A stretch of DNA of 64,000 bases from Clostridia bacterium (GTDB taxonomy: Bacteria; Bacillota; Clostridia; TANB77; CAG-508): positions 24,841-88,840 of the forward strand of contig JAGAED010000006.1 in the NCBI GenBank assembly GCA_017613275.1, in the 5' to 3' direction. Positions 2,613-63,015 of the stretch are shown here, one piece after another. Each line of letters begins with the position of its first letter. Positions within the stretch are counted from its first letter, which is position 1. The position numbers were made by a program, and so were the translations under genes. Under the pieces are notes generated by a model that was not told the origin of the DNA, did not search any database, and saw only the letters and a list, made by a program, of their open reading frames with translations.

Positions 2613-2648
2613 AAAACCTAGTTTTTTGGGAGTGTCCCAAAAAGTCTG
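2613..2648 (-). repeat. PAL palindrome family, inverted degenerate copy (AAAACCTAGTTTTTTGGGAGTGTCCCAAAAAGTCTG)
   Basis: Left arm and loop (AGTGT, the reverse complement of ACACT) match the window-wide palindrome; right arm diverged. Confidence 0.7.
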
Positions 2649-2750
2649 TTACACAAATGTAAAATAAAAATAATGATATTGCAAAAAACGACAAAAAATA
2701 GCTTCCCTAGTGAGTTAGAAGGCGCTACCAAAACGTGGCAAAAAGTGGTA

Positions 2751-2779
2751 TTGAAATTATATATATAAGTAAGTAAAAT
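2751..2779 (+). promoter_or_regulatory. Putative sigmaA-type promoter of giant protein gene 1 (TTGAAA-17-TAAAAT)
   Basis: Hexamers at 2751-2756 and 2774-2779 with 17-nt spacer containing (TA)5; about 55 nt upstream of the RBS/ATG. Confidence 0.45.
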
Positions 2780-2835
2780 AATTCTTGAATTATACTTTAA
2801 TAAAAAGCGAAAATTATACAAAGGAGAGGCTGGTT

Positions 2836-5800
2836 ATGAAATTGCCATTTAAACCAAAGTATTTGAATTTTAGGAAAGGAAGCGAAAAAGGTAGTGTTAC
2901 TTTATTCGTTCTTATTGCGATGCTATTTTTCCTTATGATTGGAATGATGATTTTTATTATCAACATGAATGCTGAAACAGCGCAAAAGAGAGATGTTGAG
3001 AAGATCAAAAGTGAATACAGCGCAAATACGAACGAAACTGACCTAGAGCAAATGTACCAAGAGGCTAAACAACGTCAAATGGGCACATTTTTTATCAAGT
3101 TGATTGATAAGTTTGGTGTAATCTATAACAGTGGTGAGTGGGTTAACGAAACATGGCTAAATAGTGAAAACTATAGATTGCCATTAACAGTTGAGCCAAG
3201 TTTCCCTGCGGGTCTTACAAACATTGATGTAACAGTAAGAGACGACATAAACGGTGGAAATGTTGTTATAAAAGACACAAACACTATCAAGCAAATGGCA
3301 ATTGGTACAAAAAGTACTACAACAGACCTACTTGTAGATGAAGGTCAATATACAATTACAAACAATATTGACTCAACAAATGAAATCAAGGTTAAAATAG
3401 ATGTTACAAAACCAGTTGTAAATACTATAAGTGGCGGAGAAGTATGGATAGTGCCAGATGGAACTGACACAACACTAGATGTTTCTATTACTGCAACTGA
3501 CCCAGCAGTCGCAAACGGAAAAGCTGGAAGTGGTATGGAAGGCGGAAAAATCGAATACGCTATTGGCACAACTGCACCAGATGGCAACACAACATGGTCA
3601 ACATATACAGGAGCAATAAAAGTTGAAAGTTCTTTGGGAGAAGGAGATTATTATATATATGCTAGAGCAACAGACTTAGCAGGAAATATTTCAGAAATAG
3701 CAACATCAGGAGTAATACAAGTTAGAACAGCAAACTACAAAATCACAACAGGAACAGATACAAGATATTCTGAAACTTTAGCTGATGCAATTTATAGAGC
3801 AAACCAAGCAAGCACAACAACAGAATCTACAATACAAGTATTGAGAGCAGTAAATGACAACTCAGAAGCAACAATTGACAAAACGATAACATTAGACACA
3901 AATGGAAAAACAGTAACAATGGCTAATACAATAACAGTGGCAAAAAACAAAACAGCAACATTTGTAGATACAGCAACAACAAAAGGTAAATTACAAAGAA
4001 CAACAGGAAAATTGATTACAAATAATGGTACTGTAACAGTAAATGGTGCAACAGTAGAATCAACTGATATGGTAATACATGGTGGAACAGTAAATGTTTC
4101 TTCAGGTATAGTAAATAATTCTGAAACAGAAACTAATGCAACTTCTAGAGCAATTCAAGCAACTAATGTTAATATAAGTGGAGGAACAGTATCATGTAGT
4201 GCTAGTCATAGTATTGTATCTACAGGTTTAATTACAATAACAGGTGGAACAGTTTCATCTAGAAATGGTATAGCACCACTAAATGGAACCTTAACAGTAA
4301 GTGGGGGTACAGTAAATGGAACAAACCAAGCAATATATTTTAATAGTGCTCAAAGTCCAAGTATAAATATATCTGGAGGAATAATAACTGGTGGAGACTG
4401 TGGAATAGCAGGATCTGTGACTACGACTGGAACAACAGGAAGGGCTAATATAACAATAACAGGTGGAACTGTGACAGGTGCTACTGATGGTATTAAAATA
4501 GGATGCCCAAATACGACATTAACAATAGGCGAAAGCACAAACGCTCTAAATAAAGAAACACCAGTAATCACTGGTACAAATGGATATTCAGTAAATATAG
4601 AAAGTGCAACATCAACATTCAACTTCTACGATGGTAAATTAATTGGTGGAACAAAAGCATTAGCATCTGAAGAAAAAAGAACATTCTTTGGAAGAGAAAT
4701 GTCATTTAACTTAGCAAATGACACAACAGCAAATTTCTATACAGAAACAGAAGGCAATGCAACAAGAAGATACTTACCATACACAAGAGAAAATGACCAA
4801 ACACACAAATTCGAAACAGTATTAGAAAAAGAAGTAAAAGTTACATTTGACAAAAATGCAGAAGACGCAACATGCACAGAAACAGAAAGAAACGTATTAA
4901 CAAATGTAGAATATAAAGAATTGGCAGGAACAGCACAAAACGATACAAGCGTAACATACTCAAACCTACCAAGACAAACAGGTTTAGAAAATGAAACAGA
5001 CAGCAAAATCGATAGAACAGGTTATACATTCAAGGGATGGCAAACAGTAGAAAATTTAATTCCAGATAGTGTTGATGATTGGGAACAAGGAGCAGTAAAT
5101 ATTGCTGGGGAACTTAGTAATAGTAGTACAAGAATAAGATTAAAGAATTATTTAAAAATAGCACCAAATACAAAATATACAATAACTACAGATAATTCGC
5201 AACAACTAGGAGTGAGAATGATATGTTTGTATGATAAGAATCTTAATTATCAATCAAATGCACAAGATTTACATGGAGCTAAAAATATTTCATTTACGTC
5301 AGGCTCAAATAGTGCATATATATTGGTAGCGTTAATGAACAATAATGGTACTGAAAATGGCGGAGATATATCAGTAAATGATATTCAAAATTCAGGTATA
5401 TACATGACAGCAGAAGTTACAGACACTACAAAAGTAACACAAGACACAGACCACACACTAAAAGCAATATGGGAAGCAAACAAATACACAGTACACTTCG
5501 ATGGAGATGGTGCAACAGGTGGAACAATGGCAGACCAAGAATTTGAATATGACGAAGAAAAAGCTTTAACACAAAATGCGTTCACAAGAGAACATACAGT
5601 AACTTATGATGGAAATGAAGGAACTGCATCAAAAGCAAATGATACAGCAACATACACATTTACAAACTGGGGAAATAAAGATATATTGGGATATGACCTA
5701 GATATGTCAGTTGGTAATGTTAGACAAGATAATATTATAGGGAATGAAAATGGATACAAAACATTAACAAATACAACTGGAAGCAATACACAAAAAGATT

Positions 5801-61497: not shown

Positions 61498-61526
61498 TTG
61501 AAATCTATTAGGTATTTTGTTATAAT
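61498..61526 (+). promoter_or_regulatory. Putative promoter of the histidine kinase gene (TTGAAA-17-TATAAT)
   Basis: Hexamers at 61498-61503 and 61521-61526. Confidence 0.55.
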
Positions 61527-61551
61527 ATCACCTAGAAAAGAGGAAGGTTTA

Positions 61552-62961
61552 ATGTTTAAAAATATACAATCAAAAATAATATTAGTAATGCTTTTATGCG
61601 GATTAATCATTATAGGAGGAATAGGTGTTAGGAATATAATGCTCTTAAATGATTTGGCAAATAATTCAGCCGAGTTAACCCAAAAAGTTGAAGAGGTTAG
61701 AACAAATGCTGAAATCACTTTAGTTATAGGACTGGTAGCATTTATAATAATAGCTTTTTTAATAAGATTATATCTTTCAAAATATGTTATTTATCCAATA
61801 AATAGATTAATAAAGGGTGCTGAAAATATTCAAAACAAAGACGATTCAAAGAAAACAATCAAAAAAGAAAATTTGGAAAATGCTGATGAAATATTTGGCT
61901 TAATGACAAAAGAATTAAAAGAACAATTGAATGAGGTTTCAACAAAGAAAAATCAAATTGAAACAATTTTAAGACACATGACAGATGGAATTGTTGCTTT
62001 TAATATGGATGGGGATATCATTTTAATAAATCCAGAGGCTAAAAAACTATTGAGCATAAGGCCTGAAGATGCTACATTTGAAGACATTTTCAATAAGTTT
62101 AAATTAGATATCAATATGGAAAAAATAATATATTTGGAAAATTGGACATCATCTGAACAAAGAGTTGAAGTTGATGATAAGTACATAAATATATTTTTTG
62201 CACCATTTAAAAATCAAGATGACAGGCCAGATGGTGTAATTGCTGTGGTTCAAGATATTACAGAACACGTAAAACTTGATAACATGAGAAAAGAATTTGT
62301 GGCAGATGTTTCTCACGAATTAAAAACTCCAATTACATCAATTATGGGGTATGCAGACACATTATTAGAAGGCGATTTTGATAAGGAAACACAAAGTAAA
62401 TTCTTAAATGTTATTGCAACAGAAGCAAGAAGAATGGCTAAATTGGTTACAGATTTATTAACTCTTTCAAGATATGATAGCAAAAAGAAGAAAACTGAAA
62501 AAGTTACTTTTGACTTGGGAGAGCTTGTTAAGATGTGTCAAGATAAGCTTGCAATCGAAATAAAAAAGAAAAACCATACAGTAAATTGCTTTGTTACTGC
62601 AGATGTTCCACCGGTTTATGCTGATAAAGATGACATTGAAAGAGTTGTGTTAAATATACTTACAAATAGTATTAAATACACAAAAGATGGTGGGGAAATT
62701 AAGATATATGTAGGCTTTGTTTATAATGATGCATATATTAAAGTGTTTGATAACGGAATAGGGATTCCTGAAGAAGATTTAAACAGAATATTCGAAAGAT
62801 TCTACAGAGTTGATAAAGCTCGTACAAGAGAGATGGGCGGAACAGGTCTAGGTCTTTCAATAGCAAAAGAAATATTAGATAAAAATGGGGGAAGTATAGA
62901 TATAAAAAGTGTTGTAGGTCAAGGAACAGAAGTTGTTATAAAAATACCTACAAAGAATTAG
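61552..62961 (+). CDS. Sensor histidine kinase (TM-HAMP-PAS-HisKA-HATPase), no adjacent response regulator
   Basis: H-box FVADVSHELKTPITSI, N-box LNILTNSIKYT, G-boxes DNGIGIP and GGTGLGLSIA; ATG 61552 after AGAGGAAGG. Confidence 0.9.
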   Translation: MFKNIQSKIILVMLLCGLIIIGGIGVRNIMLLNDLANNSAELTQKVEEVRTNAEITLVIGLVAFIIIAFLIRLYLSKYVIYPINRLIKGAENIQNKDDSKKTIKKENLENADEIFGLMTKELKEQLNEVSTKKNQIETILRHMTDGIVAFNMDGDIILINPEAKKLLSIRPEDATFEDIFNKFKLDINMEKIIYLENWTSSEQRVEVDDKYINIFFAPFKNQDDRPDGVIAVVQDITEHVKLDNMRKEFVADVSHELKTPITSIMGYADTLLEGDFDKETQSKFLNVIATEARRMAKLVTDLLTLSRYDSKKKKTEKVTFDLGELVKMCQDKLAIEIKKKNHTVNCFVTADVPPVYADKDDIERVVLNILTNSIKYTKDGGEIKIYVGFVYNDAYIKVFDNGIGIPEEDLNRIFERFYRVDKARTREMGGTGLGLSIAKEILDKNGGSIDIKSVVGQGTEVVIKIPTKN

Positions 62962-62962
62962 A

Positions 62963-63015
62963 AAATGGAAAACCTTGTTTTTGGGGACACTCCCCAAAAA
63001 CAAGGTTTTCCATTT
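62963..63015 (+). terminator. Longest, perfect PAL palindrome copy (24-bp arms), terminator of the kinase gene
   Basis: AAATGGAAAACCTTGTTTTTGGGG-ACACT-CCCCAAAAACAAGGTTTTCCATTT. Confidence 0.85.

Follow-up and report, generated by a model that had tools for sequence, protein, structure and literature searches.

The stretch of Clostridia DNA analysed here, 64 kb in length and called the window below, is scattered with short palindromes of similar sequence, and the question raised by this locus is whether they are transcription terminators, binding sites or mobile repeats. About 11 copies of a mobile, REP/BIME-like hairpin family had been described in the earlier note. All 11 were found where it had placed them, with lengths of 27-53 nt, and their occurrence is non-random compared with shuffled sequences.

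2613 to 2648, minus strand: copy with GGGACAC on the minus strand, in the gap that separates the rpoC terminator from the first giant surface-protein gene; lower stem imperfect, arms CCTAG and GTCTG.
13154 to 13194, plus strand: canonical copy, 4 nt past the stop of a 3454-aa ORF, with a T-rich tail after it; MFE -20.5 kcal/mol.
21052 to 21100, minus strand: variant copy, its core TTTTGGGACACTTTCAAAA lying on the minus strand, 14 nt past the topA stop and followed by T9; lower stem unlike that of other copies yet perfectly paired.
24650 to 24687, minus strand: copy of the 2613 sub-type (arms CCTAG and GTCGG) with GGGGACAC on the minus strand, ahead of the second giant surface-protein gene, in its 5' leader.
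36173 to 36208, plus strand: canonical copy overlapping the stop codon of a tex-like gene.
39921 to 39957, plus strand: canonical copy directly 3' of the gdpP stop, with a T-run.
47200 to 47238, minus strand: copy with perfect 18-bp arms, GGGGACAC on the minus strand (GGGGTGTCCCC as reverse complement); just 3' of a TATAAT box, past the ssb terminator.
48397 to 48429, plus strand: copy in frame within a membrane-protein gene (47266-48939).
52469 to 52506, plus strand: copy 7 nt past a stop codon, with arms of the CCTGG/CCAGG sub-type.
54281 to 54307, no strand assigned: rearranged member with inverted half-cores AAGTGTCC TAATTTTA GGACACTT, then a T-run.
62963 to 63015, plus strand: longest copy, with 25-nt perfect arms, 1 nt past a stop codon; MFE -37.8 kcal/mol.

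As the earlier note had observed, canonical copies sit close to plus-strand stop codons; five of them begin -1 to +7 nt away from the stop of an ORF. Some of its other descriptions had to be revised. The 47200 copy, which had been taken for a form with a TGT loop, carries an intact GGGGACAC on the minus strand and is thus a normal member, and the 48397 copy is not intergenic but lies inside a gene. The 54281 copy, previously called a variant, belongs to the family as two half-cores in rearranged form (AAGTGTCC..GGACACTT).

The family core reads TTTT-GGGGACAC-TCCCC-AAAA, for which the chance expectation in the window is 0. When up to three mismatches were allowed, the 23-nt core TTTTTGGGGACACTCCCCAAAAA was detected at eight loci in the window and in none of the shuffles; the matches number nine, because the one at 62978 was scored on both strands. 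The sequence GGGACACT occurs 10 times in the window against 0.61 expected, and for GGACACTCC with at most one mismatch the count is 11 and the expectation 2.55. The GGGACACT at 55039 is probably a chance match and not a family member, because it is intragenic and has no flanking T or A runs. The copy density is about one per 6 kb, and two further copies were found in the 7 kb past the window.

The tip of the palindrome is much more conserved than its arms, and the conserved unit is asymmetric, consisting of a T-run plus GGGGACAC. An identical 19-nt tip is also present in Kiritimatiellia and Chromatiales genome bins, which belong to other phyla. The varying arms keep their pairing, with a Watson-Crick fraction of 0.44-0.58 at positions of about 0 bits versus about 0.3 further out, and some imperfect copies (2613, 24650) stay paired via G-T pairs. 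Such arm diversity together with kept pairing is unexplained by simple copy-and-paste. The earlier note had regarded the arms of the 52469 copy as a compensatory double change; the CCTGG/CCAGG arms are real, but they do not represent compensation in situ, since CCAGG arms form a common sub-family that is present in relatives and also at position 65568, 2.5 kb past the window.

Across 591 kb of low-GC loci, a wider census based on crude ORF calls counted 112 unique copies, of which 77 lie between ORF calls, 16 lie within one and 19 are unclassifiable, being near a locus end. The tabulation of orientation and stop distance that the earlier note had proposed gave a near-random orientation relative to genes (32 same, 25 opposite) and a median of 17 nt from stop codon to core. 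Neither GTAG nor GTGG was found at either foot of any of the 61 canonical copies, and a CGTC tag is absent as well. A consistent target-site duplication is also absent, with no flanking direct repeat in 42 of the 61 copies; the 2-nt flanking repeats in 14 others may well be due to chance in this AT-rich DNA.

Comparison of orthologous sites with relatives of about 80-86% identity showed that the repeats behave as dispersed DNA that is gained and lost, not as conserved terminators. After ssb (47200), the site is empty in the related loci L049 and L050, and L042 and L030 carry a copy whose arms differ; the place of the gdpP copy (39921) is taken in L049 and L050 by an ordinary terminator of unrelated sequence; at the end of the tex-like gene (36173), L045 and L028 carry a copy with different arms. 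The window singlet at 52469 corresponds to an inverted doublet in L049, where the 54281 site is occupied by a canonical copy and an ordinary terminator, and where a head-to-head pair is found at the site of an ordinary window terminator. Inverted doublets are present in L012, L014, L044, L049, L052 and L129, and in several genomes a spacing of about 25 nt separates the units of a pair. The in-frame copy at 48397 encodes FVFGDTAKKQG, a segment missing from all 11 aligned homologues (net +18 nt). Judging from the differences between close relatives and from the in-frame insertion, the copies have moved recently; with the inverted doublets, these findings bear out the mobile family that the earlier note had proposed.

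That note had also suggested looking for a RAYT/IS200-like tnpA gene. Neither the 64-kb window nor the following 7 kb contains a Y1 gene, but in all six independent related Clostridia loci examined (L122, L132, L135, L138, L140, and L143) a Y1 gene is located between inverted copies of the core: GGGACAC lies on the sense strand 110-135 nt before the gene, and GTGTCCC follows the gene directly. The flanks contain GGGGACAC in L122, L132, L135, and L143, and T/A-GGGACAC in L138 and L140. These flanking copies are mostly GGGGACAC-CTTCC, whereas the window form is GGGGACAC-TCCCC. Dispersed copies of the same form as the flanking ones are found on four of the six contigs, L122 additionally holds an exact window-type core, and the arms in L140 (AACCTTCTTTT) are near those of the window (AACCTTGTTTTT). 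L143 possesses the flanked gene and no dispersed copies in 20 kb, so that presence of the enzyme is no guarantee of spread.

The Y1 gene encodes a protein of about 250 aa with the HUH/Y1 fold, compared with 165 aa for E. coli TnpA-REP. Four of the proteins from the six loci, those in alignment A3, share 49-55% identity with its reference, P0123. Pfam Y1_Tnp is matched by all 32 homologues, and H60-A-H62 and Y120..N124-P125, corresponding to the H-A-H and Y-x3-N-P motifs, are invariant in the 32 sequences. The NCBIfam model REP_Tyr_transpos (NF047646) is matched with E ~1e-19, but the score of 60-70 bits lies below the curated cut-off of 80. The top PDB sequence match is 4ER8 (E. coli TnpA-REP), an entry described as 'REP associated tyrosine transposase bound to a REP hairpin', which is also the top Foldseek match (E = 6.8e-7) of the AlphaFold model (pLDDT 88.7). 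A helical C-terminal domain is confidently modelled, and a weak match to HTH_23 (E = 3.5e-4) was obtained for only one of the 32 homologues.

The window also contains ordinary, idiosyncratic terminators, at 16133, 21342, 33894, 37771, 44908, 47140, 50555, and 56397. A simple terminator scan passed two of the 11 repeat copies, namely 39920-39955 on both strands and the 2613 copy on the minus strand. T-rich tails follow the hairpins at 13154, 21052, and 54281, while no T-run is present at 36173 or 62963. With their AT-rich arms, all copies resemble bidirectional terminators, and some may function as such. The earlier proposal that the palindromes were co-opted as terminators is tenable for part of the family, in which copies with a T-run (39921, 13154, 21052, and 54281) seem to replace an ordinary terminator, but not for the whole of it, as the scan flagged only the two copies named and others lie in leaders or in a gene.

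The hairpin belongs among REP-like miniature mobile repeats and comes from an uncultured Clostridia lineage of the rumen/gut. It is probable that these repeats are mobilised in trans by a transposase of the TIRYT/RAYT type, with some copies serving as terminators. We infer that the window's own genome encodes the transposase, which would be a single-copy gene elsewhere in the genome, between two inverted repeat copies. The enzyme would recognise the tip, i.e. the T-run plus GGGGACAC, on single-stranded DNA, and by analogy with E. coli TnpA-REP and IS608 TnpA it presumably acts on the hairpins of the window. The suggestion in the earlier note that the loop is a recognition site for a protein is thus probably right for DNA seen by a transposase, but not for an RNA loop, given the orientation counts. 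Cutting and rejoining could lead to singlets and inverted doublets being gained, lost and rearranged between genes without target-site duplication. Selection would then retain harmless copies: those just past stops, those in leaders and the rare in-frame copy in a protein loop that tolerates it. Some copies might replace the local intrinsic terminator, because each is a strong palindrome with A-run and T-run ends.

Other explanations were also considered. The repeats could be immobile double-stranded sites with a host role such as chromosome organisation, to which another DNA-binding protein or the helical C-terminal domain of a domesticated Y1 protein binds. The resemblance of RAYTs to housekeeping genes in their behaviour (PMC5581495), the well-modelled C-terminal domain with its one weak HTH_23 match, and the units paired about 25 nt apart favour this explanation, which is unlikely, however, since turnover among close relatives and the in-frame insertion point to recent mobility, and GGGG[AT][CG]A[CG] is unlike DnaA boxes according to Quentin et al. 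(PMC6006769). It is quite improbable that the palindromes are intrinsic terminators of an efficient bidirectional design, whose likeness is due to selection or gene conversion and owes nothing to a transposase. The five canonical copies next to stops, the T-runs of several copies, the terminator-like character of 39920-39955 on both strands, and the gdpP copy standing in for the ordinary terminator seen in L049 are consistent with this design. However, the 24650 and 47200 copies are located in 5' leaders, the 2613 copy behind an existing terminator and the 48397 copy within a gene; nine of the 11 copies fail the scan, including 36173 and 62963, which lack a T-run; and the empty sites and doublets in relatives, the same core around the Y1 gene in six of six loci, and the identical tip in unrelated phyla all argue against it.

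A function in RNA, in which an RNase cuts the loop GGACACUCC or an RNA-binding protein attaches to it and so governs mRNA stability or processing, is very unlikely. Copies face either way with respect to genes almost at random, which would leave AGUGU in place of ACACU in half of the transcripts; no Rfam family matches the hairpin; and the GGGGWSAS motif of Y1-flanking repeats accounts for the core, although the conservation of the tip far beyond the arms, the location of most copies in transcribed gene ends or leaders, and the G-T pairs that maintain pairing in the 2613 and 24650 copies would suit such a role. Each copy consists of two inverted arms, and the dispersed family varies in presence and absence, as might be expected of a minimal MITE, in which the two terminal inverted repeats of a DDE-type insertion sequence abut and are moved by its transposase. 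This origin is highly improbable in view of the 42 of 61 copies without target-site duplication (the 2-nt repeats in 14 being quite possibly chance), the length of 27-53 nt, which is below the size of known MITEs, and the Y1 nature of the gene between inverted copies in the six loci examined. DNA uptake sequences are short oriented motifs that occur about once per kb genome-wide, genes included. Conserved palindromes at gene ends recall the paired uptake sequences that double as terminators, but the likelihood that the hairpins are inverted pairs of this Neisseria/Pasteurellaceae style is close to nil, because they occur only about once per 6 kb, coding DNA is nearly free of them (one of 11 window copies is genic), their asymmetric unit (T-run plus GGGGACAC) flanks a transposase gene, and the same tip is present in distant phyla.

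The family has features in common with several known systems. The IS200/IS605 family recognises sub-terminal hairpins on single-stranded DNA. Its TnpA proteins (IS608, ISDra2) share the HUH/Y1 fold, and target-site duplication is absent in both systems; unlike in IS200/IS605, only the hairpins of about 40 nt are multiplied here and the gene is not, and there is neither tnpB nor long element ends. Rickettsia palindromic elements likewise include in-frame palindromes that add a short peptide to a poorly conserved protein segment, but they are longer, often genic (here one of 11 window copies) and CGTC-tagged (PMC3733652). REP/BIME and REPIN sequences with their RAYTs in E. coli and Pseudomonas are also numerous short extragenic palindromes with inverted doublets, share the REPtron layout of a single-copy HUH/Y1 gene between inverted copies, and are known to be inserted in frame in genes. 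However, the foot of a REP hairpin bears a 5' GT[AG]G tag, which is found in 0 of 61 copies here, where the tip and not the foot is conserved; and the protein, compared with E. coli TnpA-REP, is about 90 aa longer, has a helical C-terminal domain and falls below the NCBIfam cut-off.

GGGGWSAS is the motif common to the TIRs flanking TIRYTs, some of which make repeat families, dimers and clusters (Di Nocera 2013, PMC3733652), and a consensus of this type was also reported in Quentin 2018 (PMC6006769). The core GGGGACAC fits this consensus, so that the earlier note's impression of a family without a name has to be qualified; this fit is probably also why the 19-nt tip recurs in the Kiritimatiellia and Chromatiales bins. 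The enzyme is probably of the TIRYT type, subclass 2.1 of Quentin 2018 (which probably corresponds to TIRYTs) and Group 1 of Bertels 2017. Proteins of subclass 2.1 are long and have a C-terminal HTH-like domain (Bac_DnaA_C, HTH_23 or HTH_28), and Quentin et al. reported no REP-like sequences for them (PMC6006769). Clostridia are among the hosts of Group 1 RAYTs (Bertels 2017, PMC5581495), and the main text of PMC3733652 does not mention Clostridia or Firmicutes.

In published terms, the hairpins are best read as the 'TIR repeats' of a TIRtron. TIRtrons likewise comprise a Y1 gene between inverted repeats with GGGGWSAS, here GGGGACAC (PMC3733652). Their repeats are also dispersed as singles, dimers and clusters, some families being self-complementary, such as the ORF1152 repeats of Stenotrophomonas maltophilia K279a, and genes without an expanded repeat family occur too, as in L143 compared with the window. 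The present family differs from them in its host, an uncultured low-GC Clostridia lineage, in its AT-rich arms that make each copy bidirectional-terminator-like, in its high density (about one per 6 kb) and tight clustering just past stop codons, and in having one copy as an in-frame gene insertion. It is a fresh example of an already known type of element.

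The window has a G+C content of 31% and a GC skew that is positive along its whole length. Almost all of its genes are carried on the + strand, including rpoC, two giant Flg_new surface-protein genes, a spoIIE-like gene, topA, dnaB, ftsH and a spoVK-like AAA gene. It corresponds to bases 51,563-115,562 of ENA metagenome contig ERZ27256909:k141_375247 (267,322 bp), and its host is a clostridial spore-former that is uncultured. At gathering thresholds, Rfam yielded two tRNAs in the window and nothing else. All eleven palindromes listed in the earlier note were found, and they are named here by their start coordinates:

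13154-13194, canonical copy at a + strand gene end
36173-36208, canonical copy at a + strand gene end
39921-39957, canonical copy at a + strand gene end
52469-52506, canonical copy at a + strand gene end, with the double change CCTGG/CCAGG
62963-63015, canonical copy at a + strand gene end
2613-2648, inverted copy
24650-24687, inverted copy
47200-47238, copy with GGGGACAC on its - strand
21052-21109, variant
48397-48429, family member within a gene
54281-54307, variant, a rearranged pair

The five canonical copies all start -1 to +7 nt from the stop codon, as had been claimed, while several other descriptions needed correction. Copy 48397 is located within a gene, and copy 47200 has GGGGACAC on the - strand. 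Copy 54281 is a variant, more exactly two half-cores, and the double change of copy 52469 is real but represents a recurrent arm sub-type, which is also found in relatives and at 65568 outside the window. The 23-nt core with at most three mismatches matched eight loci in the window and none in shuffled sequences, and GGGACACT occurs 10 times versus 0.61 expected. Predicted RNA hairpin energies of the copies range from -8 to -38 kcal/mol, and idiosyncratic ordinary terminators occur alongside the family.

Several other features were observed in the window. The leaders of both giant Flg_new genes (2561-2784 and 24424-24669) are paralogous, having in common a terminator CTACGCAAGCACGRCTTGCGTG, a GTWACAAAAATGTAAAATAAA stretch and a GCTTCCCTA box, and the position of the family hairpin differs between them. 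A third GCTTCCCTA box lies at 16277-16285 upstream of the spoIIE-like gene (three occurrences versus 0.3 expected). The leader at 60184-60341, before a Glyco_transf_28 (MurG-like) gene, contains the long inverted repeat CCATGGTTCTTAGAGATTTATCTCTTAGAACCATG and has no Rfam match, including at E values up to 1. Behind the first giant gene is a 618-nt gap with a small ORF of ~83 codons that has a good ribosome-binding site (c. 13468-13718) and falls under the 100-aa threshold of the ORF listing; a palindrome at 13727-13764 follows this ORF. Positions 52525-54273 and 54331-55560 hold a SpoVK/CbbX-like AAA gene and a weak Replic_Relax gene, then a PemK-toxin-domain gene (356 aa as called on locus L144, 409 aa as a mechanical ORF), an arrangement that is kept in the relative L049.

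Relatives syntenic with parts of the window have about 76-86% nucleotide identity to it. On the 3' side of gdpP, where the window has a family copy, an ordinary terminator of unrelated sequence is present in L049 and L050. The site that follows the ssb terminator and a TATAAT box is occupied by a copy in the window and is empty in L049 and L050; in L042 and L030 it holds a copy whose arms differ and whose core is in the opposite orientation. A head-to-head pair is present in L049 where the window has an ordinary terminator; site 52469 is a singlet in the window and an inverted doublet in L049; site 54281 holds the rearranged pair in the window versus a canonical copy and an ordinary terminator in L049; and the tex site has a copy in both lineages, with different arms. 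Copy 48397 is an in-frame insertion within a 557-aa membrane-protein gene (47266-48939), where LLTIYD of 11 homologues (68-84% identity) corresponds to FVFGDTAKKQGLS encoded in the window, with a net gain of 18 nt. These differences point to gain, loss and rearrangement of copies. The 557-aa gene itself is located at this site in the window and L049; in the CAMOWC01 and CAMPBS01 relatives (L042/L030) the site is without it, and a pseudouridine synthase gene directly follows ssb.

Copies also occur outside the window, in Clostridia MAGs and in rumen and gut metagenomes. A scan of 185,579 species genomes with the pattern TTTKGGGACACTCCCMAAA gave 42 stretches, about 24 of which are from low- to moderate-GC Clostridia MAGs of ruminant or gut samples (CAMPBS01, CAMOWC01, JAFUGK01, JAFRNM01 and others). 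Five stretches came from one Chromatiales MAG and four from one Kiritimatiellia MAG. About 17 chance matches are estimated for this pattern in 596 Gb; singletons in other phyla fall within this number and are uninformative. The metagenome scan gave at least 80 stretches; roughly half of those listed are low-GC rumen or gut contigs, where AGACTTTTGGGGACACTCCCCAAAAGTCT is the commonest unit among the matches listed and inverted doublets are frequent. The 19-nt tip TTTGGGGACACTCCCCAAA in the Chromatiales and Kiritimatiellia MAGs matches the consensus of the window's family, and repeat families of Clostridia, Kiritimatiellia and Chromatiales have a tip identical to the nucleotide; the lower stems in these two MAGs are wholly different from those of the window's family. 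In the Chromatiales MAG (Ww634) this tip caps a long-hairpin repeat of roughly 70 nt (loci L010, L018, L037, L038 and L043), whose middle arms are variable yet complementary and whose outer arms, GACGAA...TTCGTC, are like those repeats that Di Nocera et al. 2013 called 'CGTC-tagged'. Searching the literature for the core as a text string returned two irrelevant matches and nothing else.

A partner gene was identified in related loci. Approximate IS200 TnpA and E. coli RayT sequences, used as tblastn queries against the window and all collected loci, gave one weak match (E = 0.049), and this led to a gene on rumen contig L122 (ORF 772-1518, 248 aa), which matches Pfam Y1_Tnp, has GGGACAC-bearing units on both flanks and lies 0.8 kb from a canonical AGACTTTTGGGGAGTGTCCCCAAAAGTCT copy. 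Its product has hundreds of homologues of ~250 aa, the named sources of which are all Clostridia MAGs or metagenomes, and some are labelled 'REP element-mobilizing transposase RayT' by JGI. The same layout is repeated in five more independent loci (L132/133, L135, L138, L140 and L143): a T-run and GGGACAC precede the gene by 110-135 nt on the sense strand, and an inverted copy lies just downstream of the stop codon. Arm sequence is genome-specific in these loci: dispersed copies match the Y1 flanks of their own contig in L132, L138 and L140, and the L140 arms, AACCTTCTTTT...AAAAGAAGGTT, are nearly equal to the window's. In L143, the TIRYT-like gene (9872-10810) has perfect inverted flanks and no dispersed copies in the surrounding 20 kb, indicating that the family is not expanded in every genome with the gene.

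The IS200 TnpA/RayT queries gave no match in the window, and tblastn with the Clostridia Y1 proteins revealed no additional copies in the window or any locus. No Y1 gene is present in the 7 kb adjoining the window, and a second homologue search found nothing on the 267,322-bp contig. The protein P0260 was rejected as the window genome's own Y1 protein, since its contig is unrelated. The RAYT/IS200-like tnpA for which the earlier note suggested a search was found, with its flanks, in related loci, and the homologue search gave no match to it on the window's 267-kb contig; such an enzyme is presumably encoded in the window's own genome.

The Y1 protein has invariant H-A-H and Y-x3-N-P motifs in 32 sequences, and matches NCBIfam REP_Tyr_transpos with E about 1e-19 at scores under the curated cut-off. 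Its best PDB sequence match is 4ER8, a complex of TnpA-REP with a REP hairpin. In Foldseek, its AlphaFold model (pLDDT 88.7) likewise matched 4ER8 best (E = 6.8e-7), ahead of the IS608 and ISDra2 transposases. An extra C-terminal helical domain is present, with a weak HTH_23 match in one of the 32 homologues. By analogy with TnpA-REP and IS608, the enzyme would act on the hairpins as single-stranded DNA.

The low-GC loci (591 kb) contain 112 unique copies, a count that gives no density figure since only loci with a copy were selected. Most (77) lie between crude ORF calls, 16 are inside an ORF call, and 19 are so close to the end of their locus that they could not be classified; the core lies at a median of 17 nt from the stop codon. 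In an alignment anchored at GGGACAC, conservation is good in the T-run and A-run and information is almost nil at the arm positions beyond, where pairing is nevertheless 0.44-0.58 versus ~0.3 further out. The arms vary between copies, even at one orthologous site, yet remain complementary. Among 61 canonical copies, neither a GTAG or CGTC tag nor a consistent target-site duplication was found.

The family is best read as a population of REP-like repeats that is linked to an enzyme of the TIRYT/RAYT type, and the earlier note was right to regard it as a mobile REP/BIME-like hairpin family, given the turnover in relatives and the association with the Y1 gene. As for its proposed use as terminators, some copies would serve in this way, and the role is plausible for the T-run copies 13154, 21052, 39921 and 54281; only two copies passed a simple terminator scan. 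In tandem-gene contexts, 32 copies have the same orientation as the genes and 25 the opposite, an almost random split that speaks against a strand-specific role as RNA.

Other explanations fit less well. A transcription-factor operator, an SD/anti-SD mimic, an invertase hix-like site, dif/Xer sites, CIRCE or a sequencing-adapter artefact would each be at odds with the positions, the variation between copies and the Y1-gene association. A phage-associated element was ruled out, as viral contigs gave one match only, and a regulon in the Kiritimatiellia loci was rejected because the neighbouring genes are unrelated housekeeping genes. Arrays of GGGACATGTCCC palindromes with a 21-nt period were observed beside gene starts in metagenome contigs of other organisms, about ten in L118 (1000-1220; GC 0.35) and three in L123 (2870-2940; GC 0.44). 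They look like an iteron/operator array and probably belong to a different system with part of the motif in common.

REP/RAYT systems are known chiefly from Proteobacteria, and we know of no defined substrate and no biochemistry for the widespread TIRYT/subclass 2.1 branch. The 'TIRtrons' and 'TIRYTs' of Di Nocera et al. 2013 are RAYT-like genes with inverted-repeat flanks instead of GTAG REPs (PMC3733652); GGGGWSAS is common to many of the flanking repeats, some of which are self-complementary and make up moderately abundant families that include dimers and clusters. Clostridia and Firmicutes are absent from the main text of that study. According to Quentin et al. 2018, who quote the flank consensus as GGGG[AT][CG]A[CG], the TIRYTs are probably equivalent to subclass 2.1 of the Y1 superfamily, which is the second largest and has long proteins with an HTH-like domain at the C-terminus; they detected no REP-like sequences for it (PMC6006769). 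In the literature, the term TIRYT is confined to these two papers. Group 1 RAYTs, the most widely distributed group, are present in Clostridia and go with modestly repeated 16-mers (Bertels et al. 2017, PMC5581495).

GGGGACAC is an exact fit to the published TIRYT flank consensus, which probably accounts for the tip shared with distant phyla. It is possible, although we would rather doubt it, that the T-run and GGGGACAC-tipped hairpin is the natural DNA substrate of subclass 2.1/Group 1/TIRYT enzymes, and that in this Clostridia lineage a REPIN-like expansion replaced many native terminators. This class is the largest and least understood of the RAYT-like enzymes and has been reported without REP-like partners. 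The present lineage offers a compact hairpin, in which the invariant T-run and GGGGACAC are separate from freely varying, paired arms, together with matched transposase genes and close relatives that provide natural 'before and after' sites, making the recognition rules and mobility of the class directly testable. For annotation, the family explains why the same palindrome ends many genes in these rumen and gut Clostridia, and possibly why many transposase genes are on very short contigs. The feature is real, and it represents a known kind of element in an unusual host group and at an unusually high density.
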